Source: a virus
Lineage: Duplodnaviria > Caudoviricetes
Virus record (IMG/VR): IMGVR_UViG_3300011977_000415
Span: 41,365-105,364 of that record
Strand: one strand, 5' to 3'
Length of the DNA: 64,000 nt
Numbering within the stretch: the stretch's first letter is position 1; each line of letters starts with the position of its first letter. This document shows, piece by piece, positions 11,848-30,353 of the stretch. Made by a program: the position numbers and the translations under genes. Below the pieces are notes generated by a model. That model was not told where the DNA came from and made no database searches. It worked only from the letters and a program-made list of their open reading frames with translations.

Positions 11848-11874
11848 AAAACTCGCTGAAAATCAGCGAGTTTT
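11848..11874 (-). terminator. Original tRNA-Ser terminator displaced by prophage integration
   Basis: AAAACTCGCTGA-AAA-TCAGCGAGTTTT hairpin directly abutting the duplicated tRNA 3' end, with a T-tract on the minus strand. Confidence 0.7.
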
Positions 11875-11887
11875 GCGGAGAGAGAGG
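11873..11887 (+). repeat. att core (left copy), TTGCGGAGAGAGAGG
   Basis: Identical to 61259-61273, the 3' end of tRNA-Ser. Confidence 0.92.
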
Positions 11888-12005
11888 AAGCGTAACCCAT
11901 GAGTTTACACAATCCCAATGCGTGCCACAATGCCGTAAAACCTTGATTTGATGTTTTGTTGTGGTGTTTTATAGTGCCACACAATACCATATTTGCCCCG
12001 AAAAA

Positions 12006-12054
12006 TCGTGTACATTTTCGTGTACGTGGTTTTTTGGGGCTTTTTTCGTGTACA
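12006..12054 (+). repeat. Integrase arm-type sites (3 x TCGTGTAC)
   Basis: TCGTGTACATTTTCGTGTAC at 12006-12025 is identical to 61207-61226; third copy at 12046-12054. Confidence 0.75.
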
Positions 12055-12057
12055 TTG

Positions 12058-13332: not shown

Positions 13333-13613
13333 GGTTGTTCAATATACATTTCGCCAACGCCAAGAAGCAGCCACGCCGGATTCACGCCGAAATCCAAGCA
13401 GATGCCCGAAAGCGCGTCAAGGTCAATAATTCGGTATGTCATCGCGTCCGTTCCCATCGTGTTTCTTATACAACTGTATTTTGTGCGGTTCAAATTATGT
13501 TTCCGGCAAAATCCACGCAATCCCAACGTTTTGCCGGATTCAACCGCATTGTCAAGGGCTTGAAAGAACCTTGCTTGTATGGCTTGGGATTCGGGGCTAA
13601 TATTCTTTTTCAT
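13311..13613 (-). CDS. Hypothetical HTH-like protein
   Basis: ICLDFGVNPAWLLLGVG is typical of repressor-like HTH C-termini; co-oriented with the integrase. Confidence 0.6.
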   Translation of the reverse strand: MKKNISPESQAIQARFFQALDNAVESGKTLGLRGFCRKHNLNRTKYSCIRNTMGTDAMTYRIIDLDALSGICLDFGVNPAWLLLGVGEMYIEQPCTSNEQ

Positions 13614-14176
13614 CGCGCGTGCGTGCGTATATTATCAATAATGATATGGAACACCGGGTAACTTATCAAATAGGCGTTATCGGCATTTATTTGCGCCGAA
13701 AGCGTGCCTTGTTGAAGTACATTGCCGGAGAAAACAACACGTTCAAGGTTGCCGATGCCCGCAAGCCTTTGGAAAACGGAATCGGTGGCGGCATCATCCG
13801 CCTTGCAATAATACGAAGCATCAAACGTTATTTGTGGCTTGGCATCAATTCCGTTGATGAGTTTGAACGAAACGTGTTTGTATGTGGTATCGTTCACCAC
13901 AACATCATCCACGCGCAAACCTTGCAACAGGGCATCGAACCCATCAGCACGACCATCCCGGAACAAGGATTGCAAATCGCGTTGGTAATCACCAAACAGT
14001 TGCGCTTCCTTTATGGGGTTAAATGTGGTGTCCGCAACCGCGCAATAATGCTGAATGATTGAATCCATTCGGCATTGCCTTTCGCATTCATGCGCCGGGC
14101 GTGGTGCGTTGTGTGTGCATGAGCATTGCAACACCAATGCAAATGCAGCCAAAAGAAGTTTCATTTGCCTTGCCAT
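13610..14176 (-). CDS. Putative lipoprotein in the lysogeny operon
   Basis: MKLLLAAFALVLQCSC signal peptide/lipobox; overlaps both neighbouring genes. Confidence 0.55.
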   Translation of the reverse strand: MARQMKLLLAAFALVLQCSCTHNAPRPAHECERQCRMDSIIQHYCAVADTTFNPIKEAQLFGDYQRDLQSLFRDGRADGFDALLQGLRVDDVVVNDTTYKHVSFKLINGIDAKPQITFDASYYCKADDAATDSVFQRLAGIGNLERVVFSGNVLQQGTLSAQINADNAYLISYPVFHIIIDNIRTHAR

Positions 14177-14355
14177 TCCGCCATCTTTTGTTTGTAGTCA
14201 ATTATCATTGAATCAAACAACGCCTTGTCCACGGTCGTTGTTGGTTCGCCTTTGAGTGATGCCAATTCAAGGGCATCAAAGATTGCTTCCGGCATCACGG
14301 AATAATAAGACGGGTTGCCGTAATAATCGGCAACGTTGATTGTGATTGTTTCCAT
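14161..14355 (-). CDS. Hypothetical protein
   Basis: Compact ORF tightly packed between the repressor and the lipoprotein gene. Confidence 0.6.
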   Translation of the reverse strand: METITINVADYYGNPSYYSVMPEAIFDALELASLKGEPTTTVDKALFDSMIIDYKQKMAEWQGK

Positions 14356-14357
14356 TC

Positions 14358-14759
14358 TTATCCTTGTTTAGTTAGATTATCAATGATTGCCAAAAGGCGG
14401 TCAATGTGTTCTTGCGCCTTTTGCAACGACAATTCCTTTGATGCAAGCAATTCAACCAACTTGGATAATTCGCTTTGCATCGCCACATCGGCGGCATTCT
14501 TGATGTTGTCGCCCATCACGTTGGCTTGTTCCACATTGCCACCATACATGACTGGGGAATCAATAATGCAATCCGAATAGAGTTCGGAAAGCCTTTGTTT
14601 TAGTTTATCCGAATAAGGGGAACGCCCCGTAATAACATCGGATAGATATGTTTTGGACACACCCAATTCTTTTGCAATGTCTTGTTGGGTCATCCTTTTC
14701 TTGTATTTAATGGTTTCAATCCATTCACGAATGGCGTTTTTTTCGTCTTTATTGCCCAT
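14358..14759 (-). CDS. Phage repressor (XRE HTH with coiled-coil C-terminus)
   Basis: MTQQDIAKELGVSKTYLSDVITGR; divergent from the early lytic operon. Confidence 0.8.
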   Translation of the reverse strand: MGNKDEKNAIREWIETIKYKKRMTQQDIAKELGVSKTYLSDVITGRSPYSDKLKQRLSELYSDCIIDSPVMYGGNVEQANVMGDNIKNAADVAMQSELSKLVELLASKELSLQKAQEHIDRLLAIIDNLTKQG

Positions 14760-14781
14760 ATACGTATCTTTTTTATATTAA

Positions 14782-14866
14782 ATCCGAAAATAATTCGGAT
14801 AATGTTTGCACAATCCGAATTTAATACGTACATTTGCAGCACGTAATTAAAAACAATGCAAATATA
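14782..14866. promoter_or_regulatory. Genetic switch: operator ATCCGAA-N5-TTCGGAT, rightward promoter (TTTG 14805-14808, TACATTTG 14829-14836) and leftward -7 element (14859-14866)
   Basis: Perfect 7-bp inverted repeat at 14782-14800; Bacteroidetes -33/-7 consensus with 20-nt spacing. Confidence 0.7.
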
Positions 14867-14919
14867 AATAAATAATTAACTCGCAAAAATAGCAAAAAAT
14901 ACTCAATTTGAAGAATAAC

Positions 14920-15504
14920 ATGGAAGAATTTAAGGAAATTAAAGGTTATGAGGGCTTGTATATGGCATCAACATACGGTTTTATATATAAAATCCGTGAT
15001 GGGAAGCCCTATAAGCGCATCGGCATTCCAAGAACAGATGGTGGACATAATTACACAATAACCAAGTTGTTTGATATGAACAAAGTTCGGAAAGATGTTT
15101 GTGTACACCGTATTATTGCCGAAACATTTTTGCCAAATCCGAATAATTATCCATGCGTGAATCATATTGATGGAAATAAGCACAACAACCGGGTTGATAA
15201 TCTTGAATGGGTTACATATTCTGATAACACAAAGAAAGCGTATGAAATTGGTGCATACGATGGATGCAAGGTGATTCCGGGGCATGAACAATTTTCATTC
15301 TTGCTTGGATGGTCACAAGTTCGCCAAGGCGATTTGCAAGAGGTAAAGGATGAAATTCTTACATCCTTGAACCTAAAACAAAAAGTTTCATGGTATCAAC
15401 GCTTATATGGAAACATTGAACCCAAGATAACGGAGTATTGGAAGATTGAAGAAATATTTCATAAACATGGAATAACCCAAATTTGGGGAGTTCCGCAAAA
15501 CTAA
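14920..15504 (+). CDS. NUMOD4/HNH endonuclease fused to a Cro-like domain
   Basis: FKEIKGYEGLY (NUMOD4) and VHRIIAETF..VNHIDGNKHNNRVDNLEW (HNH); C-terminus paralogous to 15511..15729. Confidence 0.8.
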   Translation: MEEFKEIKGYEGLYMASTYGFIYKIRDGKPYKRIGIPRTDGGHNYTITKLFDMNKVRKDVCVHRIIAETFLPNPNNYPCVNHIDGNKHNNRVDNLEWVTYSDNTKKAYEIGAYDGCKVIPGHEQFSFLLGWSQVRQGDLQEVKDEILTSLNLKQKVSWYQRLYGNIEPKITEYWKIEEIFHKHGITQIWGVPQN

Positions 15505-15510
15505 AAGAAC

Positions 15511-15729
15511 ATGAACAAAGAACAATTTTCATTTAACAATGGTTGGATGCAGTTACGCCAAGCGGACATCGCGGCTTGTCGTAAAGAACTGATGGTCGCA
15601 TTCAACGTAACAACCCGCGCGGCGTTTTTGCAGCGGTTGAAAGGCAATGTCATCCCGAACGTGCTTGAAGCACACAATGTGGAAAAGGTGTTTGCCAAGT
15701 ACGGAATAAAGGATGTGTGGGGGGAATGA
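15511..15729 (+). CDS. Small Cro-like early protein
   Basis: 72-aa helical ORF among the first genes of the operon divergent from the repressor; function inferred from position. Confidence 0.6.
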   Translation: MNKEQFSFNNGWMQLRQADIAACRKELMVAFNVTTRAAFLQRLKGNVIPNVLEAHNVEKVFAKYGIKDVWGE

Positions 15730-16115
15730 TTATGGACACCGTGAAACTTACCAAACGCGAATCCGAAATTGCGGAATTGTTCGCTTGGGGCGCAAGCAAA
15801 AAGGATATTGCAAATCGCCTTTTCATTTCGGAACGTACAGTTGAAAACCACGCCCGGAACATATTCATCAAAACCGGGTGTCAAAAGGTCAATGAATTAT
15901 CCGCGTGGTGGTTTTGCACGAAGTTCCACATTTCATTCGATTTGTCGCCATTCAAGCGCAAGTTCATCACATGGTGTTTGCTTGCCGTAATGATGCCAAC
16001 AATCATCAACCACGATAATGTGGTAATGCGTTTCCGCACGCAAAGCAGAACAACCCGTGTACAACGTTCACGCCGTGAATCGGAAGATGGAACGGCAAGT
16101 TTTCAAATCATCTAA
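15726..16115 (+). CDS. LuxR-type HTH regulator with a hydrophobic C-terminal segment
   Basis: LTKRESEIAELFAWGASKKDIANRLFISERTVENH. Confidence 0.85.
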   Translation: MIMDTVKLTKRESEIAELFAWGASKKDIANRLFISERTVENHARNIFIKTGCQKVNELSAWWFCTKFHISFDLSPFKRKFITWCLLAVMMPTIINHDNVVMRFRTQSRTTRVQRSRRESEDGTASFQII

Positions 16116-16126
16116 AATTCGCAACA

Positions 16127-16330
16127 ATGGAAAAATTCATTTCAGTATTTCAAATCATCACCGCGATATTCATTTTCCTTTTCGCGGTTGGCACAACAAT
16201 CCGTTGCATCGTCAATGGAAGCGATGTTTTTTACATCATCATGTTCACGTTGATGGCGTTGGTCGGTCGTTCAATGTTACGTTACACGATTGCAGAATAC
16301 AAGGAGTTGAAGCATGGAAATAACAAGTAA
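16127..16330 (+). CDS. Small two-TM membrane protein
   Basis: Two hydrophobic stretches; start preceded by the TAAAATTCGCAACA motif. Confidence 0.65.
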   Translation: MEKFISVFQIITAIFIFLFAVGTTIRCIVNGSDVFYIIMFTLMALVGRSMLRYTIAEYKELKHGNNK

Positions 16331-16589
16331 CACCCGCATCATTGATTTGACCGTTGGGCAACTGATGGATATAATTGCAAAGGCACAAGCCCCGGCGGTT
16401 GAACAAGCCCCGGAGCAAACGAAACGCCTTGTGTATGGAATTTCCGGGATTGCACAATTGTTCAATTGCAGCATGACAACGGCAAACCGCATCAAGGCAT
16501 CCGGGCGCATTGATGATGCAATCACGCAACATGGGCGTATCATCGTGGTGGATGCCGACAAAGCATTGGTTCTATTTAATAACAAATAA
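16314..16589 (+). CDS. DUF3853-family protein (excisionase-like HTH)
   Basis: DLTVGQL..VYGISGIAQLFNCSMTTANRIKASG..AITQHGRIIVVD. Confidence 0.75.
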   Translation: MEITSNTRIIDLTVGQLMDIIAKAQAPAVEQAPEQTKRLVYGISGIAQLFNCSMTTANRIKASGRIDDAITQHGRIIVVDADKALVLFNNK

Positions 16590-16600
16590 AATTCGCAACA

Positions 16601-18559
16601 ATGAAACAAGTAATTTTGAAGTCCTTGACCCTTTGCAATTTCAAGGGTGAACAGGCAAGAACAACGAATTTCAATCCGGATGTTACCACCATTTCCGGCG
16701 GCAACGGATTGGGAAAATCACGCCATTTCGATGCGTTCATTTGGTTGCTATTTGGTAAGGATGCACGCGACCGAAAGGATTATGAAATCAAAACCCGCGT
16801 GAATGGTGAAGAATTGCACAAATGCGAGTGCAGCGTTACGGGCGTGGTTGATGTGGATGGTGAAACAATCACATTGAAGCGTTCATTCGTGGAAGATTGG
16901 GTGAAGCCACGCGGGCAAGTGGAACAAGTGTACAAGGGAAATCACACGGAATGTTGGTGGAATGATACCCCGGTGAACGTGTCGGAATACGACAAGCGCA
17001 TCCAATCAATCGTTGATTCATCGGTTTTCAAGATGATTACAAACCCGGCGTTTTTCGTGGGCATGAAATGGCAATTGCAGCGCGAACAGTTGTTCCAACT
17101 CGCGGGCGTTGTTACTGATGCCGAAATCGCGGCGGGCAACCCACAATTCGCCGTGTTGCTTGATGTCATTTCCGGCAAATCCCTTGCCGACCACAAAAAG
17201 GAATTGGCGGCACGAAAAAAGCGTTATACGGAAGAATTGAAGCAGATTCAACCGCGTATTGACCAAACCCAAAAGATGAAGCCCGAACCGGAAGATTTCG
17301 CCGCCATTGAAGCGCAAATTGCGGACATTGACAAGCAGATTGCCGAAATTGATGCACAAATTGCCGATATAAACACCGCCATTCGCAAGCAATACGAAGC
17401 GGAACAGGTAAGGCAAAACCGCGTGAATAGTCTTACCCAACAGGCACAACAAATCGTGTTCGATGCAAAATCATTGGCGCAAGAAGCGGCATTCACCGCC
17501 AATGCAAAACGCCGCGAACATGTGAATACCATCCATGTGTTGCAAGGTGATTTGGATGCAAAGCGTGGTGAAGTACAAAAGGCACAATTGGACATCGCAC
17601 GCATCAACCGCGACATCGAAAAGGCACGCGAAAAACAATCCACGTTGCGCGATGAATGGTTTGCCGAAAACGGCAAGGAATACGCCGGGGAAACAACGTG
17701 TCCGCATTGCGGGCAAGCCTTGCCGGATGATATGATTGCAAAAGCAAAGCAATTGTTTGACGATGCCAAGGTTGCCAAATGTGCCGAAATTACCAATAAG
17801 GGCAAGGAACTTGGCGCGATAATCGCCGGATATGAAAATGATGTTGCCGCCCGACAAGAAGCCATCAACATTGCCAAATCAAGCATCGAACAGTTGAACG
17901 CCGACATCAAGGCTTTGCAAACCGAACTTGACGCAATGCCCGAAAAGGCGGCATCCACCATCAACCCCGAAGAAATCCCGGCATGGGTGGAATTGCAAAA
18001 GCAGATTGCCGACATCAAGGCGACCATTTCAACCGACAACACGGGCGTTGATACAAGCGCATTGCAAACCGCCAAGGCTGACTTGAACAGGCAACGCAAC
18101 GAATTGTCCACACGCCTTGCAAAGCGTGGCGCAATCAAGCGTTGCGATGATGAAATCACCAACCTTGAAGCACGTGGCAAAGAGTTGTCGCAAGCCATCG
18201 CCGACATTGAACGCGATGAATACACGGTTGAACAATTCACCCGCGCCAAGATTGACGAATGCGAAAAGCGCATCAACGCCAAGTTCAAATTCGTAACATT
18301 CCGGTTGTTCGATTACACCTTAGATGGCAACCCGGTTGAAACGTGCATCCCGTTGTGTGATGGCGTGCCGTATGGCAGCGCGAACACCGCAAGCCAAGTG
18401 AATGCCGGATTGGACATCATCAACGCCTTATGTGGTTATTACGGCATTTGCGCGCCAATCTTCATTGACAACCGCGAATCGGTAAACAACATCATTCCCG
18501 TACAAAGTCAAATTATTAACCTTGTCGTAACCAACGACAACAAATTGACCGTATCATGA
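16601..18559 (+). CDS. Rad50/SbcC-like ABC ATPase with coiled coil and zinc hook
   Basis: GGNGLGKS Walker A, CPHC hook, IFIDNRES Walker B, long coiled coil. Confidence 0.85.
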   Translation: MKQVILKSLTLCNFKGEQARTTNFNPDVTTISGGNGLGKSRHFDAFIWLLFGKDARDRKDYEIKTRVNGEELHKCECSVTGVVDVDGETITLKRSFVEDWVKPRGQVEQVYKGNHTECWWNDTPVNVSEYDKRIQSIVDSSVFKMITNPAFFVGMKWQLQREQLFQLAGVVTDAEIAAGNPQFAVLLDVISGKSLADHKKELAARKKRYTEELKQIQPRIDQTQKMKPEPEDFAAIEAQIADIDKQIAEIDAQIADINTAIRKQYEAEQVRQNRVNSLTQQAQQIVFDAKSLAQEAAFTANAKRREHVNTIHVLQGDLDAKRGEVQKAQLDIARINRDIEKAREKQSTLRDEWFAENGKEYAGETTCPHCGQALPDDMIAKAKQLFDDAKVAKCAEITNKGKELGAIIAGYENDVAARQEAINIAKSSIEQLNADIKALQTELDAMPEKAASTINPEEIPAWVELQKQIADIKATISTDNTGVDTSALQTAKADLNRQRNELSTRLAKRGAIKRCDDEITNLEARGKELSQAIADIERDEYTVEQFTRAKIDECEKRINAKFKFVTFRLFDYTLDGNPVETCIPLCDGVPYGSANTASQVNAGLDIINALCGYYGICAPIFIDNRESVNNIIPVQSQIINLVVTNDNKLTVS

Positions 18560-19224
18560 AAATATATTCAACAAAGGATTATTCGCGTTTTTCATTTCTT
18601 GATAACAATCGGATTGTAAAAAGTAGTCATGTTGATATGTTGAAAAAATCAATCAAGAACATTGACTTGACGAAGTATAATCCAATCAAGGTTGATGCTA
18701 ATTTGCGTATCATAGATGGACAACATAGATTCCATGCGTGTATGGAATTGGGATTACCTATATATTATGTTGTACTAAATGGTGTTGATGCTGAGCAAGC
18801 AATGATAATTGACAACCAAAACAACAAGAAATGGGAAATGATGGATTGGTTGCGTTACAGGGCAAACAAGAATGGTGGTTGTTATAAACAGTTGCTTGAT
18901 TTTATACAACAAACATGCACAACCATTAGTAACGCAATGGTAATATTTCCGGCTAAGGCAATAAATGCGGCAACATTGAAAGCCGGGACAACCGATTTCG
19001 GCGTTAATGAAAAAGCCTTTGATATTGTACATTTCTTGCAATCACAAGAAGTTAAGACATTATCATTTAGAAACAAAGAGCATTTAATTTGGCGATTAGA
19101 ATTGCATTTTGACGAATACTCAAAAAGGCAAATGGACAAATTGAAACGAAAGATTCTTTTAGTTCCCGAATGTGCAAATTACAAACAATACCTTACCGTT
19201 TTTTCAAACATAATAAAAAAATGA
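18556..19224 (+). CDS. ParB/Srx-like N-terminal domain protein (AT-rich)
   Basis: NNR..HV..LKKSI..PIKVD..IIDGQHRFHAC. Confidence 0.7.
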   Translation: MKIYSTKDYSRFSFLDNNRIVKSSHVDMLKKSIKNIDLTKYNPIKVDANLRIIDGQHRFHACMELGLPIYYVVLNGVDAEQAMIIDNQNNKKWEMMDWLRYRANKNGGCYKQLLDFIQQTCTTISNAMVIFPAKAINAATLKAGTTDFGVNEKAFDIVHFLQSQEVKTLSFRNKEHLIWRLELHFDEYSKRQMDKLKRKILLVPECANYKQYLTVFSNIIKK

Positions 19225-20189
19225 ACGAATTACAAAAAACCAATGGTGGCGCAATGATGCAGACCACCACCACAACAAGCCCGGCTTTCAATTTCTTTGA
19301 CCCGGTGCAGTTTGACACCATGCAACGTGTGTGCAGTTTCTTTGCATCGTCCGACCTTGTGCCGGACAATTACAAGGCACAATTGAAGCCATTACCCGCC
19401 GGGGCTGATGAAAACACCATCGCCGCAATCAAGGCGGAAAACACCGCAATCAAAACAAAGGCGGTTGCTAATTGCATGATTGCAGTTGAAGTGGCATCGC
19501 GCATCGGCGCAAGCCCATTGATGGTGATGCAAAACATGGCGGTGATTTATGGTCGCCCATCTTGGTCGTCCAAGTTCTTAATCGCCACCGTCAATTCGTG
19601 CGGTCGCTTTGAACCGCTTCAATTCCGGTTTATCGACAAGGGCGCGTTGGGCATGGTGGATTACACGGATTACATATATAACCCGCAAACACGCCGAAAG
19701 GATGCCATAACAAAGCAATTCGATGGCAAGAAGATTCACGACATCGAATGTGTGGCATACACCACGAAGCGTGGTTCGGATGGCGTGTTGGAATCATCCC
19801 CGGTGTCGGTTCGCCTTGCCGTTCAAGAGGGTTGGTACACCAAGAACGGAAGCAAGTGGCAAACAATGACAAAGCAAATGTTGATGTACCGCGCCGCGTC
19901 CATGTGGACGAACGCTTATGCCCCGGAACTTTCGATGGGTATGCGTACCGTTGAGGAACAACAGGACATTTACACCGAATATGAGGATGTAACCGCCGAA
20001 GTTGCCGCCGAAAAGGAAAACAACGCAAACAAGAAGCGCATTTCCCTTGACATGGGCAACGGCAAAACACAAGTTGTGGACACGGAAACAGGCGAAATTC
20101 AGCCCGAAAAACCCGCGGCAAAGGAAACGCCCGACAACGCGCCGAAAGCCCCGGAAAAGGCAAATAACACCCCAAATCCGGGATTCTAA
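19221..20189 (+). CDS. RecT-like single-strand annealing protein
   Basis: ANCMIAVEVASRIGASPLMVMQN..GRPSWSS, SKWQTM..QMLMYRAAS; position beside an exonuclease-like MBL gene. Confidence 0.7.
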   Translation: MNELQKTNGGAMMQTTTTTSPAFNFFDPVQFDTMQRVCSFFASSDLVPDNYKAQLKPLPAGADENTIAAIKAENTAIKTKAVANCMIAVEVASRIGASPLMVMQNMAVIYGRPSWSSKFLIATVNSCGRFEPLQFRFIDKGALGMVDYTDYIYNPQTRRKDAITKQFDGKKIHDIECVAYTTKRGSDGVLESSPVSVRLAVQEGWYTKNGSKWQTMTKQMLMYRAASMWTNAYAPELSMGMRTVEEQQDIYTEYEDVTAEVAAEKENNANKKRISLDMGNGKTQVVDTETGEIQPEKPAAKETPDNAPKAPEKANNTPNPGF

Positions 20190-20208
20190 CAATTAAACCG
20201 AAAGGCAA

Positions 20209-20949
20209 ATGGAATTGAAAGTATTGGGTTCAAGCAGCAAGGGCAATTGTTACTTGCTTGACAACGGCAATGAAGCATTGATGATTGAATGCGGCATCGC
20301 GTTCAAGAACGTGCAAAAGGCGGTGGATTTTGACATCAACCGCATTGCCGGGTGCATCATTTCACACGAACATGGCGACCATGCAAAGCATGTGGGCAAA
20401 TGCCTTGATGCGCGAATCCCGTGTTACATGTCCGCCGGGACACGAAACGCCCTTGGGTTGGCATCGCATCCGTTGGCACACGCGATGGATGAACAGGTGT
20501 TGAACGTTATCGGCAATTTCGGCGTGATGCCGTTTGCCACCCAACACGATGCCGCCGACCCGTTCGGGTTCTTAATCTATCACCCGGAATGTGGAATGAC
20601 ATTGTTTGCGACTGACACATATTATTTGGCATACACATTCGCCGGATTGAACAACGTCATGATTGAATGCAATTATCGTCTTGACATCCTGGAGGCAAAC
20701 ATTGAATCCGGAAAGTTGAACCCGGCATTGAGAAACCGAACAATCAAGTCACACATGTCTTTCGACACATGCAAGGAAACGTTGCTTGCCAACGACTTGT
20801 CAAAGGTCAACAACATCGTTTTGATTCACCTTTCATCCGGCAATGCCTATGCCGCCGCATTCCGTGACGGCATACAGAAAGCGACACATAAGAATGTTCA
20901 TGTTGCCGAACCGGGGTTGGAAATTCTATTTAATAAAACACCATTCTAA
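20209..20949 (+). CDS. MBL-fold metallohydrolase (YycJ-like exonuclease)
   Basis: LGSSSKGN, SHEHGDH, ATDT, IECNY, HLS. Confidence 0.85.
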   Translation: MELKVLGSSSKGNCYLLDNGNEALMIECGIAFKNVQKAVDFDINRIAGCIISHEHGDHAKHVGKCLDARIPCYMSAGTRNALGLASHPLAHAMDEQVLNVIGNFGVMPFATQHDAADPFGFLIYHPECGMTLFATDTYYLAYTFAGLNNVMIECNYRLDILEANIESGKLNPALRNRTIKSHMSFDTCKETLLANDLSKVNNIVLIHLSSGNAYAAAFRDGIQKATHKNVHVAEPGLEILFNKTPF

Positions 20950-20960
20950 AAAAGAAAAAA

Positions 20961-21494
20961 ATGAAAAAGATTGAAGTTTTCAAAAAAGAGAATCCGAACG
21001 AAGTCATTGCAGTATGCAACGACCTTTCGGAAGCAAGTGAAACCATCATCAACGAATGCCAGGATGATGACGATTTGACGGTGTTCGACTTTGACACCCG
21101 CGAAGTGGAAGAAAAAGAACCCGCCGAGATTTGCCCGGATTTTGCGTCATCATGCAAATACCTTGGCATATCCGATGAATTTGCCTTTGATTGCGCCGAT
21201 GAACATGTCAAGGCAATGCAGTCACTTTACATGCTTGTTATCATCGCCCAGGCTTGGAACAAGATTGACAACTTCGTTCCGGACTATTCGAACCGCGACC
21301 AATGGAAATATTTTCCTTGGTTTATCTATGACAAAGGACATGCGGGGTTCGTTTTTGCGGGTACGTATAGTGCGCCATCGGCTACGCATGCGTCTTTCGG
21401 GTCGCGGCTTTGCTTTAAATCGTCAAATCGCGCTCGCCAATTCGGTGAAATGTTCACCGAATTATACAACGACTTTCTTTTGCTGAACAAATAA
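20961..21494 (+). CDS. Remote DGR target protein (target 2)
   Basis: Contains VR2, which differs from the TR only at TR adenines; ends ...GSRLCF like target 1. Confidence 0.85.
   Translation: MKKIEVFKKENPNEVIAVCNDLSEASETIINECQDDDDLTVFDFDTREVEEKEPAEICPDFASSCKYLGISDEFAFDCADEHVKAMQSLYMLVIIAQAWNKIDNFVPDYSNRDQWKYFPWFIYDKGHAGFVFAGTYSAPSATHASFGSRLCFKSSNRARQFGEMFTELYNDFLLLNK
21339..21417 (+). repeat. DGR variable repeat VR2 including IMH
   Basis: Over 21339-21407 there are 14 mismatches to TR 56681-56749, all at TR adenines; 3' TTTCGGGTCGCGGCTTTGCTTTA is identical to VR1. Confidence 0.92.
21439..21463 (+). other. Perfect hairpin/cruciform downstream of VR2
   Basis: AATTCGGTGAA-ATG-TTCACCGAATT (11-bp stem, 3-nt loop) inside coding sequence. 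Confidence 0.75.
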
Positions 21495-21505
21495 AATATT
21501 TCATC

Positions 21506-21955
21506 ATGGACAAAACACTTGGAAAGGACATCGCGAATCTTGTCGCACGCGAAGCGTTCTTGAAAGACAATTGCGACAAAGTTGAAGAAAAGGGTTATAT
21601 GAAGCCCTATTCGCCGGAAGAATTGCAAGGACACAAAGAGAAACTTGCCAATGTTTCGATTGAGATTGCCGAAATCGAAGCCGAAAAGAAACAAGTTGAA
21701 GCCGACTTCAAGGGACGTTTGAAACCCTTGAAAGAAGCCCGTGCAAACATGGTTTCCAACATCAAGGCAAAGGCGGAATACGTTACCGAACCATGTTATC
21801 GTTTTACCGACCGCGAAGAAAAACAAACGGGTTATTACAACGCCAACGGCGATTTGGTGGAATTGCGCCCGGCAACCGCCGAAGAATTACAACCGACCCT
21901 TTTCATGACCCCGAATTTTATCAATAACCCCGCCAAGGATGGCACAAATGATTAA
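21506..21955 (+). CDS. Hypothetical phage protein (coiled coil)
   Basis: Packed ORF in the early operon with phage-typical codon usage. Confidence 0.7.
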   Translation: MDKTLGKDIANLVAREAFLKDNCDKVEEKGYMKPYSPEELQGHKEKLANVSIEIAEIEAEKKQVEADFKGRLKPLKEARANMVSNIKAKAEYVTEPCYRFTDREEKQTGYYNANGDLVELRPATAEELQPTLFMTPNFINNPAKDGTND

Positions 21956-21961
21956 AGCATT

Positions 21962-22690
21962 ATGAACAACGAAAAAATGATTTTCAACATTGCACCCGGA
22001 ATGAACGAAGTTGTCATCCGCGAGGGTGCAGCACCCAAAGTTCTTGACCCCAAAGCCCCGGTCAAGATGAACGTGAACGGCACAATCAACGCCCCGTTTG
22101 AATACCTATCAAAGCGCATTGATTGCATCAAACAAAAGGAATGCCACATCATCGTGAACCGCGAAAAAATAACCATTCAACTTGTGGTGAACGAATCGGA
22201 CGAATACACCCGTGGCACAATTGCCGGAACATTGCAGTATCATCCCAAGTTTGAAGAATTTGGCATCAATGCGGGCAAGGTATGGTCGCCGTTCGATTTC
22301 GCGATGTTTTGCAAGATGAACCGGGCGTTCTTTGCTGATAAAAACGCGAACATGAGCCTTGTTTCGGCGTGCAAGAATTTCACCGCAAAGGTGAATAACC
22401 AAATTGAACGTGCAATACAGGAAAACGGCAACCGCACGGACAATTTCGCCCAAGTGGTCAATTCTAACTTGCCCGAACAATTCACCCTTTCCATTCCAAT
22501 TTTCAAGGGTGGCAAAAAGGAAGATTTGGTTGTGGAAACATTTGCCAAGATTGACGGTCGCAATGTTGCGTTTGTCTTGTTGTCGCCGGGCGCGGAAGAA
22601 ACGCTTGAAGATTTGCGCGACAAGGCAATTGATGAACAGTTGAACGCAATCAAGGCAATTGCCCCGGATATTGCAATATTTGAAGTTTAA
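21962..22690 (+). CDS. Hypothetical phage protein
   Basis: Packed ORF in the early operon. Confidence 0.7.
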   Translation: MNNEKMIFNIAPGMNEVVIREGAAPKVLDPKAPVKMNVNGTINAPFEYLSKRIDCIKQKECHIIVNREKITIQLVVNESDEYTRGTIAGTLQYHPKFEEFGINAGKVWSPFDFAMFCKMNRAFFADKNANMSLVSACKNFTAKVNNQIERAIQENGNRTDNFAQVVNSNLPEQFTLSIPIFKGGKKEDLVVETFAKIDGRNVAFVLLSPGAEETLEDLRDKAIDEQLNAIKAIAPDIAIFEV

Positions 22691-22743
22691 CCCCAAAGCC
22701 CGCCACCTTGCACGCGCCGGGTGGTGGGCATAACATCGCAACA

Positions 22744-23517
22744 ATGGAAGATTTGAAAACAAGATTGGATGCCCTTGTACAACAATACAACGTGCCGCAA
22801 TTCGTGGGCAATGACCCGGTACAATTTCCCCGGATGTTTACCGCATTCCGTGATATTGAAATTGCCGCGTTCCTTGCATCCACAATAGCATGGGGCAACC
22901 GGAAGCAGATATTGAAAGGATGCCACAAGATGTTATTCGGCATCATGCACGGCAAACCATTTGAATATGTGATGAACGGCGAATGCGAATGCCTCAATCC
23001 GGACATCAACATCCACCGCACGTTCTTTGGGCGTGATTTGCAATATATGTGCCGCGGCTTGAAATGGGTGTACACTATGCACGGAACAATGGAAGATGTG
23101 TTCGCGTGTGAACTTGACCCGTGGAACGGCATTTCGTTTTTCAATGCGCTTATGGCGGACGGAAACGATGGCAGCACCAACAAGCATTTGTCCGACCCCG
23201 GACGCAAGACCAAAAGCCACAAGGGAAAATCGGCGTGCAAACGTATGCACTTGATGTTGCGTTGGCTTGTTCGCAAGGATGGCAATGTTGATTTGGGTGT
23301 GTGGCGAAGAATCCCCGAAAATCGGCTTATGATACCCTTGGATGTCCATGTTGGGCGTGTCGCCCGTGAATTGGGCTTGTTAGAGCGCAAACAGGATGAC
23401 CGGATGGCGGTTGAATTATTAACCGATAAATTACGCGAATATGACATCAACGACCCAATCCGTTACGATTTCGCATTGTTCGGGTATGGTGAACAACAAA
23501 AACATCAACGAGCATGA
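22744..23517 (+). CDS. TIGR02757/DUF2400-family protein (HhH glycosylase-like)
   Basis: NDPVQFP..DIEIAAFLASTIAWGNRKQI, SACKRMHLMLRWLVR..VDLGVW, IPLDVHV, DPIRYDFALFG. Confidence 0.85.
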   Translation: MEDLKTRLDALVQQYNVPQFVGNDPVQFPRMFTAFRDIEIAAFLASTIAWGNRKQILKGCHKMLFGIMHGKPFEYVMNGECECLNPDINIHRTFFGRDLQYMCRGLKWVYTMHGTMEDVFACELDPWNGISFFNALMADGNDGSTNKHLSDPGRKTKSHKGKSACKRMHLMLRWLVRKDGNVDLGVWRRIPENRLMIPLDVHVGRVARELGLLERKQDDRMAVELLTDKLREYDINDPIRYDFALFGYGEQQKHQRA

Positions 23518-24254
23518 AAGAAACATTCTATTTCGCACACGATTACAACGCGCGCAACGACCCAAAATTGCAAAACGTGTTGTTCGACCTTGGCGTTGAG
23601 GGAATCGGCGTATTTTGGTGTATTATTGAACAATTGTATGAACAGGGTGGCAAGTTGCCGTTGCATTACTGCAAAAGCATTGCATTTGCATTGCACGTGG
23701 ATTTTTGCATGGTTGAACACCTTGTGAATGATTACGGATTATTCAAGAATGACGGGCAAAACATGTGGTCGGAATCGGTTTTGAACCGATTGAACCGCCG
23801 AACCGAAGTTTCCGAAAAACGCAAGTTGGCGGCGTTGGCAAGGTGGCGGCAAGGCATTGAAAATCAAAGTCAAACGCAAGCCCCGGCAAGTTGTAGGCAA
23901 GTTAGTGAAAATGCAAGTGTTATGCAAATGCAATGCAAAACCGATGCAAATGCAGAACATAAAGGAAAGGAAATAAAAGAAAAGGAAATAATAAAAGAAA
24001 GAGAGAAAGAAAAAACCGCACGGCGGTTTATCCCGCCCACGGTTGAAGAAGTCAAAGCGCGCATTGATGAAATGGGTTACACGTTCGATGCCGAAGCGTT
24101 CATTGCATTCTATCAATCAAACGGGTGGATGGTCGGAAAGTCCAAAATGAAAGATTGGCGGGCGGCAATGGTAACATGGCAGAAACGCGAACCACGATTC
24201 CCGCGCGGCGGCAAGTCAAGTTCAACATCTAAAAAGGCAAACGAAGAATGGTAA
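23514..24254 (+). CDS. Replication initiator (DUF4373/Lin1244-like N-terminus)
   Basis: YFAHDYNARNDPKL..GIGVFWCIIEQL; C-terminal FIPPTVEEV..FIAFYQSNGWMVGKSKMKDWRAA. Confidence 0.8.
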   Translation: MKETFYFAHDYNARNDPKLQNVLFDLGVEGIGVFWCIIEQLYEQGGKLPLHYCKSIAFALHVDFCMVEHLVNDYGLFKNDGQNMWSESVLNRLNRRTEVSEKRKLAALARWRQGIENQSQTQAPASCRQVSENASVMQMQCKTDANAEHKGKEIKEKEIIKEREKEKTARRFIPPTVEEVKARIDEMGYTFDAEAFIAFYQSNGWMVGKSKMKDWRAAMVTWQKREPRFPRGGKSSSTSKKANEEW

Positions 24255-24997
24255 ACGAAGAAAAGAAACCCCAAATGCCAACGGTGGAAGCGGTTTTGAA
24301 TGCAATCCGGCAACGCGGAATGTTTTCGGGATTCCAACGTTACGAATACACCAAGCCGGGATGGTACGACATCAACAATGCCTTGAAGATTGTTGAAGCC
24401 ATCGGCAAATCACGAAACCCGGCATTCGTGATTGATGATGAAAACCGTTTCACATACGAAAATTTCATCAAGTGGGCGCACGGCGACCGAACATTTCAAG
24501 CCCTTGACCCGGTAACACGAAAGGCAATTCCCGGACGCATGAACCGCGGCATCTACATTGCCGGAAATACGGGAACGGGCAAAACGTGGTGCATGGAAAT
24601 CATGCAAGCATACATCCAAGCAATCGGATTCCGGATTTTGTGGCAAGATGACACCGAACCACGCCCGTTGTGGTGGCGTACAATCCGCGCCGATGGCTTG
24701 TGTGATGTGTGGACGGAAACCGGAAATGTAACGGCATACAAAAACGCGCCGATGCTTTGCATCCAAGACCTTGGCAACGAACCACAAGAAGCGTTGTACA
24801 TGGGCAACCGCCTTGACGTGGCACGTTACATCATCGAATATCGCGGCGATGCCCACGCCGAACTTACATTCATCACGTCCAATTTGCGCATGGGCGGCGA
24901 CATCCTCAAAGAACGATATGGCGACCGCGTGGCAAGCAGATTGATGGAAATGTGCAATTATTTTGAAATCAAAGGCAAAGACCGCCGAAAAATTTGA
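24248..24997 (+). CDS. DnaC/IstB-like helicase loader ATPase
   Basis: GNTGTGKT, LCIQDLGNE, TFITSN..RYGDRVASRL. Confidence 0.85.
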   Translation: MVNEEKKPQMPTVEAVLNAIRQRGMFSGFQRYEYTKPGWYDINNALKIVEAIGKSRNPAFVIDDENRFTYENFIKWAHGDRTFQALDPVTRKAIPGRMNRGIYIAGNTGTGKTWCMEIMQAYIQAIGFRILWQDDTEPRPLWWRTIRADGLCDVWTETGNVTAYKNAPMLCIQDLGNEPQEALYMGNRLDVARYIIEYRGDAHAELTFITSNLRMGGDILKERYGDRVASRLMEMCNYFEIKGKDRRKI

Positions 24998-25027
24998 TTG
25001 GTATTTACTAACTAACAAAACGATATT

Positions 25028-25804
25028 ATGAATGAAATCATCCAATCAAGCGTGTACACCACGCAAAAGGGAACGCCCGTAACCGATTCGGTAAAGGTGG
25101 CGCGGGTGTTCGATAAGATGCACAAGAATGTTATGAAGTCAATTCGCAACATCTTGGGGTCGGCTCAAAATTTAGCCAACCAAAATTGGTTTTACGAAAC
25201 CACATACACGGATGCCCAAGGCAAGCGGCAACCCATGTTCTTGATGAACCGGGACGGTTTTTCATTGCTTACCATGTCATTGACCGGGGAAAAGGCAATG
25301 GCGTTCAAGGTGGCATTCATCGAACAGTTCAACCGGATGGAACAGGCAATCAAGGATATTGCCCCGGCGACCCCGGCAATTCCGCAAACATTCGCGCAAG
25401 CGTTGCGCCTTGCAGCGGAACAGGCGGAAACAATCGAAGCGCAACAAAAGCAACTTGAAGAACAAGCCCCCAAGGTGGCATTCGCAACCGCCATCATCAA
25501 TTCGCCATCATCGTGCGGCATTGATGAACTTGCAAAATTGTTGAAGCAAAACGGCGTGGACATGGGCGAAATCCGGCTTTTTCAATGGTTGCGTGATAAT
25601 GATTACTTGTGCAGCGTTGGCACGGCACGAAACCAACCAACGCAAAAAGCCCTTGACATGGGGTTGTTTGAACTCAAACCGCAAACGTGGACGAATCCCT
25701 GGACGGATGAAGTGATGACAACCACCCGCACAATGGTAACGGGCAAGGGCAAACAATATTTCATCAATAAATTCATTTACCAACAGGAAAGGAAAAGCCA
25801 ATGA
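25028..25804 (+). CDS. Rha-family regulator with ANT/KilAC antirepressor C-terminus
   Basis: TDSVKVARVFDKMHKNVMKSI..MNRDGFSLL (Rha); PKVAFA..LAKLLKQNG..LFQWLR..VTGKGKQYF (ANT). Confidence 0.85.
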   Translation: MNEIIQSSVYTTQKGTPVTDSVKVARVFDKMHKNVMKSIRNILGSAQNLANQNWFYETTYTDAQGKRQPMFLMNRDGFSLLTMSLTGEKAMAFKVAFIEQFNRMEQAIKDIAPATPAIPQTFAQALRLAAEQAETIEAQQKQLEEQAPKVAFATAIINSPSSCGIDELAKLLKQNGVDMGEIRLFQWLRDNDYLCSVGTARNQPTQKALDMGLFELKPQTWTNPWTDEVMTTTRTMVTGKGKQYFINKFIYQQERKSQ

Positions 25805-26394
25805 GGATTTATGTTTCGGGCAAGATTTCGGGCTTGCCGTATGAAGATGTAAAAACCCGTTTCGATGATTGCCAAGCATTGCTTGAATCCATCGGGTTTG
25901 AAGTGATTAACCCCATCACGATGGGATTGCGTCAAGAAGCCACATGGGAACAACACATGGTCAAGGACATTGAATTGCTTTTGTCGTGTGATGCAATCTA
26001 TATGATGGACAATTGGACGGAAAGCACCGGGGCGGGTATTGAATACGACATCGCCTTTCGGTTGGGCAAGGATATATGGTTTGAATCATCGTTTGCCCGC
26101 GACAACCGGAATGTGATGCGCATTCAAAACGCCATCCACGAAGTGATGGGATTGAAGTTTTCGGATTACATCGGCAAATCGCGCAAGCGTGATGGGTTTT
26201 ATGCCCGGATGATATTCGTGCATCATTGCCGGGCGTTAAAAATGAAACTGACCAAAATTGCCCAATACGTCCACCGCGACCATTCATCAATGTTGCACAT
26301 CTTGAAAAAGTACGGCGATGATATGCGGTTCAATCCGCAATTCCGTGATATAGCAACAAAAGTAAATGATATATTGAATAAAACAAACGAATAA
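25801..26394 (+). CDS. DUF4406 domain fused to a DnaA domain-IV-like DNA-binding domain
   Basis: IYVSGKISG..NP..CDAIYMMDNWTESTGAGIE (DUF4406); GKSRKR..ARMIF..LTKIAQYVHRDHSSMLH resembles the DnaA C-terminal RDHTTV motif. Confidence 0.75.
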   Translation: MRIYVSGKISGLPYEDVKTRFDDCQALLESIGFEVINPITMGLRQEATWEQHMVKDIELLLSCDAIYMMDNWTESTGAGIEYDIAFRLGKDIWFESSFARDNRNVMRIQNAIHEVMGLKFSDYIGKSRKRDGFYARMIFVHHCRALKMKLTKIAQYVHRDHSSMLHILKKYGDDMRFNPQFRDIATKVNDILNKTNE

Positions 26395-27455
26395 TGCACA
26401 AATTTGATTACCGTTGGACGTTGAAAGATGCCAACTTCACCAAAGACAAAGGAACGGTCTTTTCTTGCTTTTCTTGTGGGGGGGGGTCGTCAATGGGCTA
26501 TAAATTAGCGGGTTACGATGTTATAGGTTGCAACGAGATTGACCACCGAATGATGTACACCTATTGTCAAAACAACAATCCAAAGTTCCCATTCCTTGAA
26601 CCAATACAAACTTTCAAGGATAGAACGGATTTGCCGCCCGAATTGTTCAACCTTGACATCTTGGACGGTTCGCCCCCTTGTTCATCATTTTCGGTTGCCG
26701 GGAATCGTGAAGCTGATTGGGGAAAGATGAAACATTTTCGTGAGGGTCAGGCGGAACAAGTGTTGGATACGTTGTTTTTCGACTTCATCGAACTTGCAAA
26801 AAAGTTGCAACCGAAAGTTGTTGTGGCGGAAAATGTGAAAGGTTTGTTGCTTGGTGAAGCGAAAGACTATGTAAGGCGAATTTATGATGGTTTCGACGAT
26901 GCCGGGTATTATTGCCAACATTGGTTGCTAAATGCTCAAAATATGGGTGTACCACAAAGGCGTGAACGCGTGTTCTTTGTATGCTTGCGAAAAGACCTTG
27001 CCGAACCATTCTTGGAACGAGTGTCATTGTTTGAAGAATTACCGAGATTGAAGATGGTGTTTAATGAAAGACCAATACTTTTCAAAGAATTTGCAGACTA
27101 TAAAGGCACGGAGATAAAAGGTGGTAAATTACGCCATTATTGGGAAAACAGGATTCCTGATGACGACGGTATGGGGGACACGACCAAAAGATTGTATGGT
27201 GTCGAAAAGTGCTTCAATCACCGATACGATAAAGAAGATATGGTTTGCCATACATTGACCGCCAAAGATGCGTGTTTTTGTTATAATCAACCGCGTAGGC
27301 ATTCAGTCGGCGAAGTTTGTTGCATTTCATCGTTTCCACAAGATTACAACTTTGGCGGTCAATCACCACATTACGTTTGCGGAATGTCAGTTCCACCCGT
27401 TATGATGGCGCAACTGGCGAATCAAATTTGGGAACAATGGTTGTCAAAAATTTAG
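26394..27455 (+). CDS. C5 DNA cytosine methyltransferase (orphan)
   Basis: FSCGGG (motif I), GSPPC (IV), ENVKG (VI), QRRERVFF (VIII), GMSVPP (X). Confidence 0.9.
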   Translation: MHKFDYRWTLKDANFTKDKGTVFSCFSCGGGSSMGYKLAGYDVIGCNEIDHRMMYTYCQNNNPKFPFLEPIQTFKDRTDLPPELFNLDILDGSPPCSSFSVAGNREADWGKMKHFREGQAEQVLDTLFFDFIELAKKLQPKVVVAENVKGLLLGEAKDYVRRIYDGFDDAGYYCQHWLLNAQNMGVPQRRERVFFVCLRKDLAEPFLERVSLFEELPRLKMVFNERPILFKEFADYKGTEIKGGKLRHYWENRIPDDDGMGDTTKRLYGVEKCFNHRYDKEDMVCHTLTAKDACFCYNQPRRHSVGEVCCISSFPQDYNFGGQSPHYVCGMSVPPVMMAQLANQIWEQWLSKI

Positions 27456-27484
27456 AAATAAATATAACATAAATTTTTCAAGAA

Positions 27485-28018
27485 ATGAATTTTAATGAAT
27501 TAGCAGATAAAGCACATTCCAACGCCGTGAATCACGGATTTTGGGACGAAAAGTGGAGCAATGAACATTGCTTGATGCTTGTTATCACCGAAATTGGCGA
27601 AATGGTCGAAGCGCACCGCAAGGGACACCGTGCCGATATTGATGCGTTCGTGAAGTATAATGAACGAATTGCGTTCGATGAAAACTTTGAAAGACACGTC
27701 AAAGATACCGTCGAAGATGAATTTGCAGACATTGCCATTCGTCTTTTCGACCTTGCCGGGGCTTTGGGCGTGGATTTCGACAAGATGAATCCTTGCCGTT
27801 ACCACCGAGCATTCGACAAGTTCGACTTTGCCGAAAACGCATTTGCCTTGTCCAAGGGCTTGTGCCGGGATGGCATCGGAATTGAAAAGCGCATCCAATT
27901 CGGTTTGGATTTCGTTACCAAATGGGCGCAAGAACTGAATATCGAATTGGCGTTTTTCGTTGCGCAAAAGATGCGATACAACGTGATGCGCCCATACAGG
28001 AACGGCAAACAATATTGA
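27485..28018 (+). CDS. MazG-like all-alpha nucleotide pyrophosphohydrolase
   Basis: LVITEIGEMVEA..VEDEFADIAIRLFD..KMRYN. Confidence 0.65.
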   Translation: MNFNELADKAHSNAVNHGFWDEKWSNEHCLMLVITEIGEMVEAHRKGHRADIDAFVKYNERIAFDENFERHVKDTVEDEFADIAIRLFDLAGALGVDFDKMNPCRYHRAFDKFDFAENAFALSKGLCRDGIGIEKRIQFGLDFVTKWAQELNIELAFFVAQKMRYNVMRPYRNGKQY

Positions 28019-28022
28019 TGCC

Positions 28023-28202
28023 ATGCGTTTCATTGTGATAACCGAAAACCCCTTGACCGGGGAACGAACAACGGTTGAAACAAAGGATTATGAAGCCTTG
28101 CGCATCGACCGCGCCGAAATCGTTGCAATCGTGGATAAGACCGCGCAACAAGTAACGTATGATGGCGAAACATGGAATGATTTTGAAAAAGTTTATTTTT
28201 AA
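28023..28202 (+). CDS. Small hypothetical protein (59 aa, not in the ORF track)
   Basis: MRFIVITENPLTGERTTVETKDYEALRIDRAEIVAIVDKTAQQVTYDGETWNDFEKVYF* exactly fills the intergenic gap. Confidence 0.6.
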   Translation: MRFIVITENPLTGERTTVETKDYEALRIDRAEIVAIVDKTAQQVTYDGETWNDFEKVYF

Positions 28203-28221
28203 CCCTTAAAATTAAATTGTT

Positions 28222-28608
28222 ATGTTACAAATTGAAGTTATCGGAAACATCGGCAATGATGCCGAAATTAAGGATTTCAGCGGCAAAAAGTATGTTGCTT
28301 TCAATGTCGCACATTCGGAACGCCGCAAGGATGCCAATGGCACAACGGTTGAATCAACAACGTGGGTGTCCGTGCTTTGGTACGGCGATGGCGGCGGTTT
28401 AACGCCACACCTTAAACGTGGTGCGAAAGTGTTTGTCCGCGGTCGCATGGCGTTGAAACAATACCAAGACAAAAACGGGCATTGGCAAACCGCCGTGAAC
28501 TGCAATGCAAGTGAAATCCAACTTTGCGACATCAAGGGCAACGGAAATGGCAATGCAGCAGCCGCGCCCGCCGCGCAACCCGAAAACGCCGATGGTATGC
28601 CGTTCTAA
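28222..28608 (+). CDS. ssb: Single-stranded DNA-binding protein
   Basis: IGNIGNDAE OB-fold start, LKRGAKVFVRG, acidic DGMPF tail. Confidence 0.9.
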   Translation: MLQIEVIGNIGNDAEIKDFSGKKYVAFNVAHSERRKDANGTTVESTTWVSVLWYGDGGGLTPHLKRGAKVFVRGRMALKQYQDKNGHWQTAVNCNASEIQLCDIKGNGNGNAAAAPAAQPENADGMPF

Positions 28609-29097
28609 ATGAAGCACGACAACATCATTGCCATTGACCCGGACAAGGAAAAGTCCGGGGTGGCTTTTTTGAAGCGAAGCACGCGGCAATTGGAATTGAC
28701 CAATCTTGCGTTCCCGTTGTTGCTTGATTACTTGCAGCACGCCAAGAAAAAGGGCGAGGAAACGCACGAATCGTTGATTGTCGTTGTTGAAGCCGGATGG
28801 ATGAACGCCAAATCATGCTTTCACGCCGCCCAAGGCAAACAGGCGGAAAAGATTGCAAAGGATGTCGGCGCGAACCACGAAACCGGGCGCAAAATCATTG
28901 AAATGTGCGAGCATTACGGCATCGAAGTAACGCCGCACGCGCCTTTGGTGAAGTGTTGGAAAGGCAAAGACCGGAAGATTACACACGATGAATTGGCATC
29001 GTTCACGGGCATCATGGGGCGCACCAACCAAGATGCAAGGGATGCCGGATTGTTGGCGTGGACATTTGCCGGATTGCCCATCCGCATAAAACCATAG
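28609..29097 (+). CDS. RuvC-like (RNase H fold) Holliday junction resolvase
   Basis: IIAIDPD..SGVA, VVVEAG and NQDARDA acidic motifs. Confidence 0.6.
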   Translation: MKHDNIIAIDPDKEKSGVAFLKRSTRQLELTNLAFPLLLDYLQHAKKKGEETHESLIVVVEAGWMNAKSCFHAAQGKQAEKIAKDVGANHETGRKIIEMCEHYGIEVTPHAPLVKCWKGKDRKITHDELASFTGIMGRTNQDARDAGLLAWTFAGLPIRIKP

Positions 29098-29164
29098 GTG
29101 GATAACTTTGGGATAACTTATCGGGCAAAAGGGGTGTATTATAGTGATACACCCCTTAACTTTG
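29098..29164 (+). promoter_or_regulatory. Putative late promoter 1 (packaging operon)
   Basis: Tandem GGATAACTT repeats (29098-29119), palindrome 29134-29152, TAACTTTG 29157-29164. Confidence 0.65.
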
Positions 29165-29196
29165 CATTGCAATTGCATAATTAAATAAGAAATCGT

Positions 29197-30311: not shown

Positions 30312-30353
30312 GTGATAATTGTAACAAAATCAACCTAAAAAAGAGTTTTGACA

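Follow-up and report, generated by a model that had tools for sequence, protein, structure and literature searches.

Introduction

The DGRs of phages are usually seen as host-range devices that diversify tail proteins. According to Benler et al. (2021, Microbiome 9:78, PMC8008677), the previously known phage DGR targets were structural, and the Quimbyvirus DGR has a second target that lies in a "defense-related island". More recently, Dahlman et al. (2025, Nature 647:698, PMC12629997) described four induced gut prophage species in which an additional, distal VR is located close to genes for counter-defence; these remote VRs were found by BLAST of the TR, and were read in terms of a phage-host arms race. 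The concept of a distal, non-structural DGR target in a counter-defence setting is already published in these two studies. Remote targets were not detectable in the survey of Roux et al. (2021), as stated by its authors; since surveys have missed such targets, the remote-target class is under-counted.

Here we analyze a 64,000-nt stretch of phage DNA (IMG/VR record IMGVR_UViG_3300011977_000415, positions 41,365 to 105,364; hereafter "the window"), in which a first-pass annotation made from the sequence had proposed that one template repeat (TR) diversifies two target genes. As in Quimbyvirus and LoVEphage, a single DGR is found here with two VRs, one in a tail-module protein and the other in a distal non-structural ORF. 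A second hypervariable protein, encoded in an early recombination operon, would imply that diversification by phages extends to a factor working within the cell.

Results

The window contains a prophage of ~49.4 kb (11873..61273), bounded by two copies of a 15-nt att core, TTGCGGAGAGAGAGG (11873-11887 and 61259-61273), which is common to the tRNA-Ser gene (61261-61346) that serves as the integration site. The integrase gene (12058-13332, minus strand) lies at the left end of the prophage; an AAA_14/DUF4143 ATPase gene is found just beyond attL, and the host mutS2 gene (61448-64000) just beyond attR. The host group is gut Bacteroidales, and the phage is temperate, carrying an integrase and a repressor. 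Most of the related complete genomes measure ~48-57 kb.

The DGR cassette is located at 55-58 kb of the window, where the gene of a tail protein with VR1 is followed by the TR and then, adjoining the TR on its downstream side, by the reverse transcriptase (RT). This first target gene (55199..56515, plus strand) codes for a 438-aa protein that matches phrog_5302, "tail protein" (E 2e-122), and contains VR1 (56384..56499, plus strand) in its C-terminal part. Comparison of the repeats delimited the TR at 56642..56757 (plus strand; 30 adenines); over 116 nt, VR1 departs from it at 20 TR adenines and at 1 non-A position. The RT (56920..57986, plus strand) is split into two ORFs (56920-57528 and 57525-57986), with an RVT_1 match on both halves and the YADD motif in the second. 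An Avd accessory gene was not recognized among the flanking ORFs (54838-55209, 56627-56923 and 57913-58302), none of which has a Pfam match; the sole match of the last one is to phrog_11557, a family with no assigned function, and a divergent accessory protein is possible.

The second target gene (20961..21494, plus strand) codes for a 177-aa protein of the phrog_11581 family. Realignment of 21339-21407 with TR positions 56681-56749 was gap-free and yielded 14 mismatches, all 14 at TR adenines (21 A in 69 nt), exactly as the first-pass annotation had it. When the alignment is extended to 21415/56757 (77 nt), 15 mismatches fall at TR adenines and one (G to T) at a non-A position, this last one being located in the 3' block and also present in VR1; the probability that at least 15 of 16 mismatches would fall on the 22 A among 77 positions is 6.9e-10 (hypergeometric). 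VR2 comprises an adenine-mutable part (21339..21398, plus strand; codons 127-146), in which every one of the 14 mismatches falls on a TR adenine, and an IMH-like 3' block (GGGTCGCGGCTTTGCTT; 21399..21415, plus strand), which equals the VR1 block and carries fixed differences from the TR. Of the 116 nt of the TR, it matches only the 77 at the 3' end; the 39 nt upstream of these are unrelated (23 non-A mismatches). The VR ends at codon 152 and is followed by 25 codons, in line with the ~25 given earlier.

VR1 and VR2 differ from each other at the same TR adenines. The codons listed by the first-pass annotation are correct: TAT in the TR became TGT in VR1 and TTT in VR2, and two AAT codons became GGT and TTT in VR1, and GCT and CAT in VR2. 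The 3' end is common, with a 23-nt stretch, TTTCGGGTCGCGGCTTTGCTTTA, that is identical in the two VRs, unlike the TR, and that contains the 17-nt IMH-like core. Different substitutions at the same adenines next to a common fixed block support the earlier conclusion that the VRs arose by independent mutagenic homing rather than by gene duplication. BLASTP similarity between the VR2 protein and the tail target was confined to the VR, and homology of the two targets beyond it was rejected. The dual targeting claimed earlier thus stands in that one TR serves two unrelated proteins, and phrog_5302 supports a tail protein as the partner. The claimed distance was correct for one of two maps only: TR and VR2 are 35.3 kb apart in the integrated prophage, but ~14 kb apart on the excised circle, where VR2 lies downstream of the TR with the lysis genes and the repressor between them. 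Relatives agree with this, having the RT 9-13 kb upstream of their target gene.

Homing to VR2 was examined across related phages. Of 37 near-complete related phage genomes, 33 contain a match to the window TR, typically as a triplet of TR, VR1 and VR2, and 26 have TRs with 86-95% identity to it. When VR2 was compared to the TR of the same genome in 27 IMG/VR genomes, 362 mismatches were found at A and 33 elsewhere, most of the latter in the final column (after the 3' block) or in the IMH block. The 90%-identity cluster of the window protein has 68 members; the 15 members listed have 15 distinct VR2s, with 92-95% protein identity and near-identity outside the VR, their differences falling nearly all at adenine-templated codons. 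In an alignment of the window protein with 45 homologues of 54-94% identity (46 sequences), six of the seven AAT-templated codons had an entropy of 3.0-3.45 bits, with 11-15 residue types, and the first had 1.4 bits. Most VR codons without A had an entropy near zero, and the rest of the protein averaged 0.57 bits. The first-pass annotation had named a lack of A-specific polymorphism across related phages as refuting its reading; such polymorphism was clearly found in the 15 cluster members, the 27 genomes and the entropy profile. Since the differences from the TR are A-specific in 27 genomes and the VRs are distinct in 15 strains, VR2 is a genuine, recurrently used second homing target in this lineage, and is neither a duplication relic nor a chance match.

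Both ends of VR2 are marked by conserved sequence. The IMH-like block GG(G/T)TC(G/T)CGGCTTTGCTT is near-invariant in its nucleotides across 59 different sequences of the family, synonymous sites included, and the codons downstream of it vary freely. The last varying adenine belongs to the ATC codon directly 5' of this block. In other genomes, the TR differs from both VRs by two fixed differences in the 3' block, one of them synonymous. By analogy with BPP-1, the block appears to act like an IMH/IMH* pair. On its 5' side, VR2 reaches its limit at an A-poor, perfectly conserved sequence, ATGCGGGGTTCGTTT. A perfect inverted repeat of 11 bp with a 3-nt loop also lies inside the coding sequence 3' of VR2 (21439..21463, plus strand; 25 nt). 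The hairpin is perfect only in the window and in one relative (L013), with 3-9 of the 11 pairs formed in other relatives, and RNAalifold found no consensus structure at this site in the family. It was rejected as a conserved cis element since its pairing is not kept and no consensus structure accompanies it, and judging by these alignments it is probably not one.

The 177-aa protein has two parts: an acidic alpha/beta domain at the N-terminus, and at the C-terminus a conserved module of ~95 aa that contains the VR. Its match to phrog_11581 (E 5.4e-19) is best over residues 125-177, aligned to profile positions 143-195 of 200. The protein has a pI of 4.5, and its residues 1-80 have a pI of 4.05, with 23 D/E vs 7 K/R. 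The maximum Kyte-Doolittle value over 19 residues is 0.89, so that no membrane segment or signal-like stretch is present. These values agree with the length, the acidic N-terminus and the absence of signal and TM segments described earlier. The C-terminal module is ordered as a long helix (…IAQAWNK), the motif PDxSNxxQxKYFPWF, the 26-residue VR loop, GSRLCFK, and two short helices; ~10-12 of the 26 loop residues are randomized, and the loop lies between the conserved helix and the two C-terminal helices.

In two AlphaFold models (mean pLDDT 76.7 and 67.1) the helical frame is confident and the VR loop is below pLDDT 50; we assume that this loop is displayed on the surface. A C-type lectin fold was not recovered in these two models, in which the VR loop itself has pLDDT below 50. 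Foldseek found no match against the PDB at E 0.001 or better, and wide VIA-align searches with the full model and the C-terminal module reached best Z scores of 4.3 and 5.4, with generic small alpha/beta or helical chains and no lectin in the result lists. Fold searches in BFVD and the Atlas retrieved only uncharacterized phage proteins, probably family members. The scaffold may represent a new, non-lectin display fold for DGR variable loops. For the 177-aa protein, no match to a known family was found with Pfam, PADLOC, a PDB sequence profile or an ESM Atlas feature search; neither these searches nor PHROG linked it to a known domain or to a defence or anti-defence family. Foldseek and VIA-align found no recognizable attachment module in the N-terminal acidic domain.

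The target gene is located in an early operon in which, according to Pfam and PHROG matches, genes for an SMC/AAA_23-like ATPase (16601-18559), a ParB-like protein (18556-19224), RecT (19170-20189) and a metallo-beta-lactamase (MBL)-fold hydrolase (20209-20949) precede it, and phrog_12688 (21506-21955; assigned by PHROG), DUF2303 (21962-22690), DUF2400 with weak HhH-GPD similarity (22708-23517) and a Lin1244-type replication protein (23514-24254) follow it, all on the plus strand. Beyond the Lin1244-type gene lie Rha/ANT, DnaA_C and C5 methyltransferase genes. The target gene is separated from both neighbours by gaps of 11 nt, and the order of SMC-like ATPase, RecT, MBL hydrolase, target, phrog_12688, DUF2303 and replication genes is kept in 57-68 of 83 loci, the genes upstream of the target being syntenic in 58-68. 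Its placement in a recombination/replication operon, as proposed earlier, is supported by both gene spacing and synteny.

The SMC/AAA_23-like ATPase gene (16601-18559) is the first large one in the early operon; it has additional matches to PADLOC models of the LmuB, PbeC and JetC types (best E 3.5e-19) and may serve either recombination or conflict. The C5 cytosine methyltransferase gene (26394-27455) lies, together with DUF2400, 1-5 kb downstream of the target gene, and is the nearest recognizable counter-restriction function in the lineage. The upstream MBL gene carries a precomputed label, "Anti-Pycsar Apyc1", which we rejected: it scores 14.2 bits and its L013 orthologue 19.9, against a PF23023 gathering cut-off of 50, and the match is limited to the common metallo-beta-lactamase motif. 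No PDB sequence match was found for this MBL protein. The failure of the Apyc1 label removes the closest hint of counter-defence in the lineage.

The phrog_11581 family is large. An alignment-based scan of IMG/VR found 346 family loci, 80 of which were fetched, and a homologue search with the window protein retrieved 619 homologues. A search with a profile of the module (HMMER) yielded 2,156 representatives at 50% identity, 654 of them at E 1e-10 or better; in these 2,156 the module is nearly always C-terminal and occasionally duplicated. The N-terminal domains are swapped among family members. Hundreds of loci preserve both the reading frame and the IMH-like block. In distant members the loop is not DGR-like, so the use of this scaffold goes beyond DGR targeting.

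Individual members show further arrangements of the module. One 49-kb genome (G001) carries two family paralogues (L018:2225-2737 and L018:7038-7571), both with TR-matching VR-like segments, which gives that DGR three targets. The only longer form retrieved by the word-based homologue search, P0122 (380 aa, on a single 2.5-kb contig), has DUF6275 at its N-terminus and the conserved target module at its C-terminus, and may be a gene-calling fusion; 10 long or two-module representatives from the HMMER search showed no significant Pfam domain. The locus is also mosaic: the 3' two-thirds of the target gene (window 21192-21494 vs L013:10238-10534) is near-identical outside the VR and the RT is almost identical, and the flanking MBL and phrog_12688 genes are only 63-66% identical to L013 in DNA.

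The copy of the DGR found in the window is likely inactive. Compared to the intact 339-aa RT of L013, the window RT lacks one C after position 57450, at a site that is not slippery, and otherwise shows 3 substitutions over ~740 aligned nt. The missing C is either an inactivating mutation or an assembly error. Judging by this frameshift, both VRs in this copy may now be frozen; RT inactivity is likely but uncertain, because the Quimbyvirus RT, spread over three frames, has been argued to be still active (Benler et al. 2021, PMC8008677). In another relative (L015:1515-2260), VR1, the TR and the remote VR2 are kept and the RT is mostly deleted, leaving a C-terminal coding remnant after the TR.

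Loss of the RT was also seen in other genomes. In 5 complete or near-complete genomes (CheckV 98-100%; G018, G029, G033, G034 and G036, with family loci L047, L077, L091, L093 and L096), the family gene is intact and no RT was detectable in a search that did detect the positive controls; one genome has an RT remnant only. DGR decay is common in the lineage. That the family gene is intact in RT-less genomes is evidence for a function that does not depend on continued diversification. These genomes show a mean of ~4 vs ~1.3 differences at non-A or normally fixed sites, and some changes at otherwise fixed positions were seen in their VR and IMH-like block (GSQ, GSL, TERFVFS). This non-A drift is no more than suggestive.

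By tblastn, homologues of the window protein were detected in LoVEphage as well as in PV4-TP1 and BI-TP1, both of them induced prophages. The LoVEphage ORF (OY731444.1 15651-16235), which also belongs to phrog_11581, matches residues 92-177 with 34% identity (tblastn E 9e-6). Its VR differs from a TR 16 kb away by 9 mismatches over 107 nt, 9 of 9 at TR adenines. The "AGFV...GSRLCF" subfamily to which the window protein belongs had no close match in 50,697 deposited phage records, and only 5 distant ones, with 32-37% identity.

Discussion

Our results show that ~10-12 codons of a conserved, non-structural-looking protein are rewritten recurrently and at adenines, and that the TR behind this also rewrites a tail protein. 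If the model established for the BPP-1 DGR applies, the TR transcript would be reverse transcribed into cDNA with adenine-specific errors, and this cDNA would replace the VR, with its 3' end anchored at the IMH-like block GG(G/T)TC(G/T)CGGCTTTGCTT. The 5' end of the cDNA would cross over in the A-poor block ATGCGGGGTTCGTTT, which would provide the homology; such a crossover point would explain why VR2 requires only the last 77 nt of the TR. The protein would then be made early and stay in the cytoplasm, where its variable loop would bind a polymorphic partner. We infer the cytoplasmic location from the lack of a signal peptide and from the position of the gene. Taken as a whole, a genuine second DGR target encoding what is likely an intracellular binder of variable specificity is the best explanation of the locus, and one that we regard as highly probable.

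The alternative that VR2 is a fossil, that is, a copy of VR1 or the trace of a single accidental homing event that was not maintained as a target, would fit the frameshifted RT of this copy, the largely deleted RT of relative L015, and the absence of an RT from some genomes with the family gene. However, 15 near-identical strains carry 15 distinct VR2s that have changed at A-templated codons, the differences of VR2 from its own TR are A-specific in 27 genomes, and the reading frame and IMH-like block are conserved across hundreds of loci. This explanation is already contradicted for the lineage, and we consider it very improbable.

The protein could belong to the virion as a second receptor-binding or adhesin module whose gene lies apart from the structural cluster, and its diversification alongside the tail protein would then broaden host recognition; one TR serves both it and the tail protein, two-target phage DGRs in which both targets are thought to be receptor-binding proteins are on record (tentaclins, PMC10743442), and signal peptides are absent from virion proteins too. 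What makes such a role unlikely is the fixed, tight place of the gene in the early operon, where 57-68 of 83 loci have it flanked by RecT/MBL on one side and replication genes on the other and where no structural gene adjoins it, together with a lack of similarity to tail proteins outside the VR, the lack of a structural PHROG match, and a small acidic N-terminal domain without a recognizable attachment module. A prophage-encoded hypervariable sensor of superinfecting-phage proteins, serving lysogen defence and not counter-defence, is a quite unlikely explanation as well. DGR-diversified intracellular sensors have been proposed for cellular DGRs in multicellular bacteria (Dore et al., bioRxiv 2023.09.22.558884), the phage is temperate, with an integrase and a repressor, and an SMC/LmuB-like ATPase is encoded in the same operon; but no fusion to an effector or NTPase domain was found in the family members examined, no PADLOC match was found, and the gene belongs to a lytic early operon that follows the repressor/cro switch and that lysogens normally keep silent.

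Most likely, the protein acts within the infected cell or the lysogen, where it would bind, with variable specificity, a polymorphic factor of the host or of a rival phage. A candidate role for such a binder would be the inhibition of a host nuclease or defence protein in early infection. It is tempting to suggest, though we do so tentatively and with some doubt, that phrog_11581 proteins are DGR-programmable cytoplasmic binders, produced early and acting in an antibody-like manner, that are re-randomized against polymorphic host nucleases and defence proteins, similar to Gam or Ocr and encoded beside RecT. A Gam/Ocr-like inhibitor is a reasonable guess because the gene comes directly after those of RecT and a putative nuclease, and because the N-terminal half of the protein is acidic; support for an anti-defence or host-takeover role was not found in any search result. 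If the reading as a binder is true, phages possess an adaptive counter-defence system. Cultured relatives exist (Dahlman et al. 2025), so the question of function is directly testable.

Comparison to BPP-1, where Mtd is the target, shows a common mechanism and a different use. In both systems the transfer from TR to VR is adenine-specific, a fixed 3' element distinguishes the VR from the TR, AAY codons are used in a design that avoids stop codons, and the VR is near the C-terminus. BPP-1, however, diversifies one target only, an adjacent virion protein of solved structure with a C-type lectin fold; unlike in BPP-1, Avd was not recognized here and the downstream hairpin is not conserved. With the sensors of cellular DGRs (Dore et al.; Vallota-Eastman et al. 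2020) the protein shares a hypervariable domain without export signals and a conflict-related neighbourhood. Those sensors are bacterial, are usually fused to NACHT/STAND, kinase or protease domains, and have recognizable C-type lectin folds, whereas the protein described here is a small, stand-alone phage protein.

The closest likeness is to LoVEphage, where the VR occupies the same place in a homologous protein, and to Quimbyvirus, where a frameshifted RT has also been reported. These Quimby/LoVE phages are ~72-75 kb in size, in contrast to the ~50-kb phages studied here, and the LoVEphage target lies among genes for methyltransferases, a nuclease, a Lar-like protein and a tRNA ligase, a neighbourhood that matches the Quimbyvirus "defense-related island" (Benler et al. 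2021), whereas the window target lies inside the RecT operon. In addition, the VR of LoVEphage spans the full TR (107 nt) while VR2 of the window corresponds to the 3' 77 nt only, and the N-terminal halves of the two proteins are unrelated. PV4-TP1 and BI-TP1, two of the phages of Dahlman et al. (2025), carry homologues of the window protein, and the target family was not characterized in that study. New here are the RecT-operon context in a different, ~50-kb lineage, the shorter VR, how large and far-reaching the family is, and that it persists in phages lacking a DGR. The phrog_11581 family is among the most widespread DGR targets in gut Bacteroidales phages, with paralogues in single genomes, and it links the Quimbyvirus/LoVEphage case to a separate group of ~50-kb phages.
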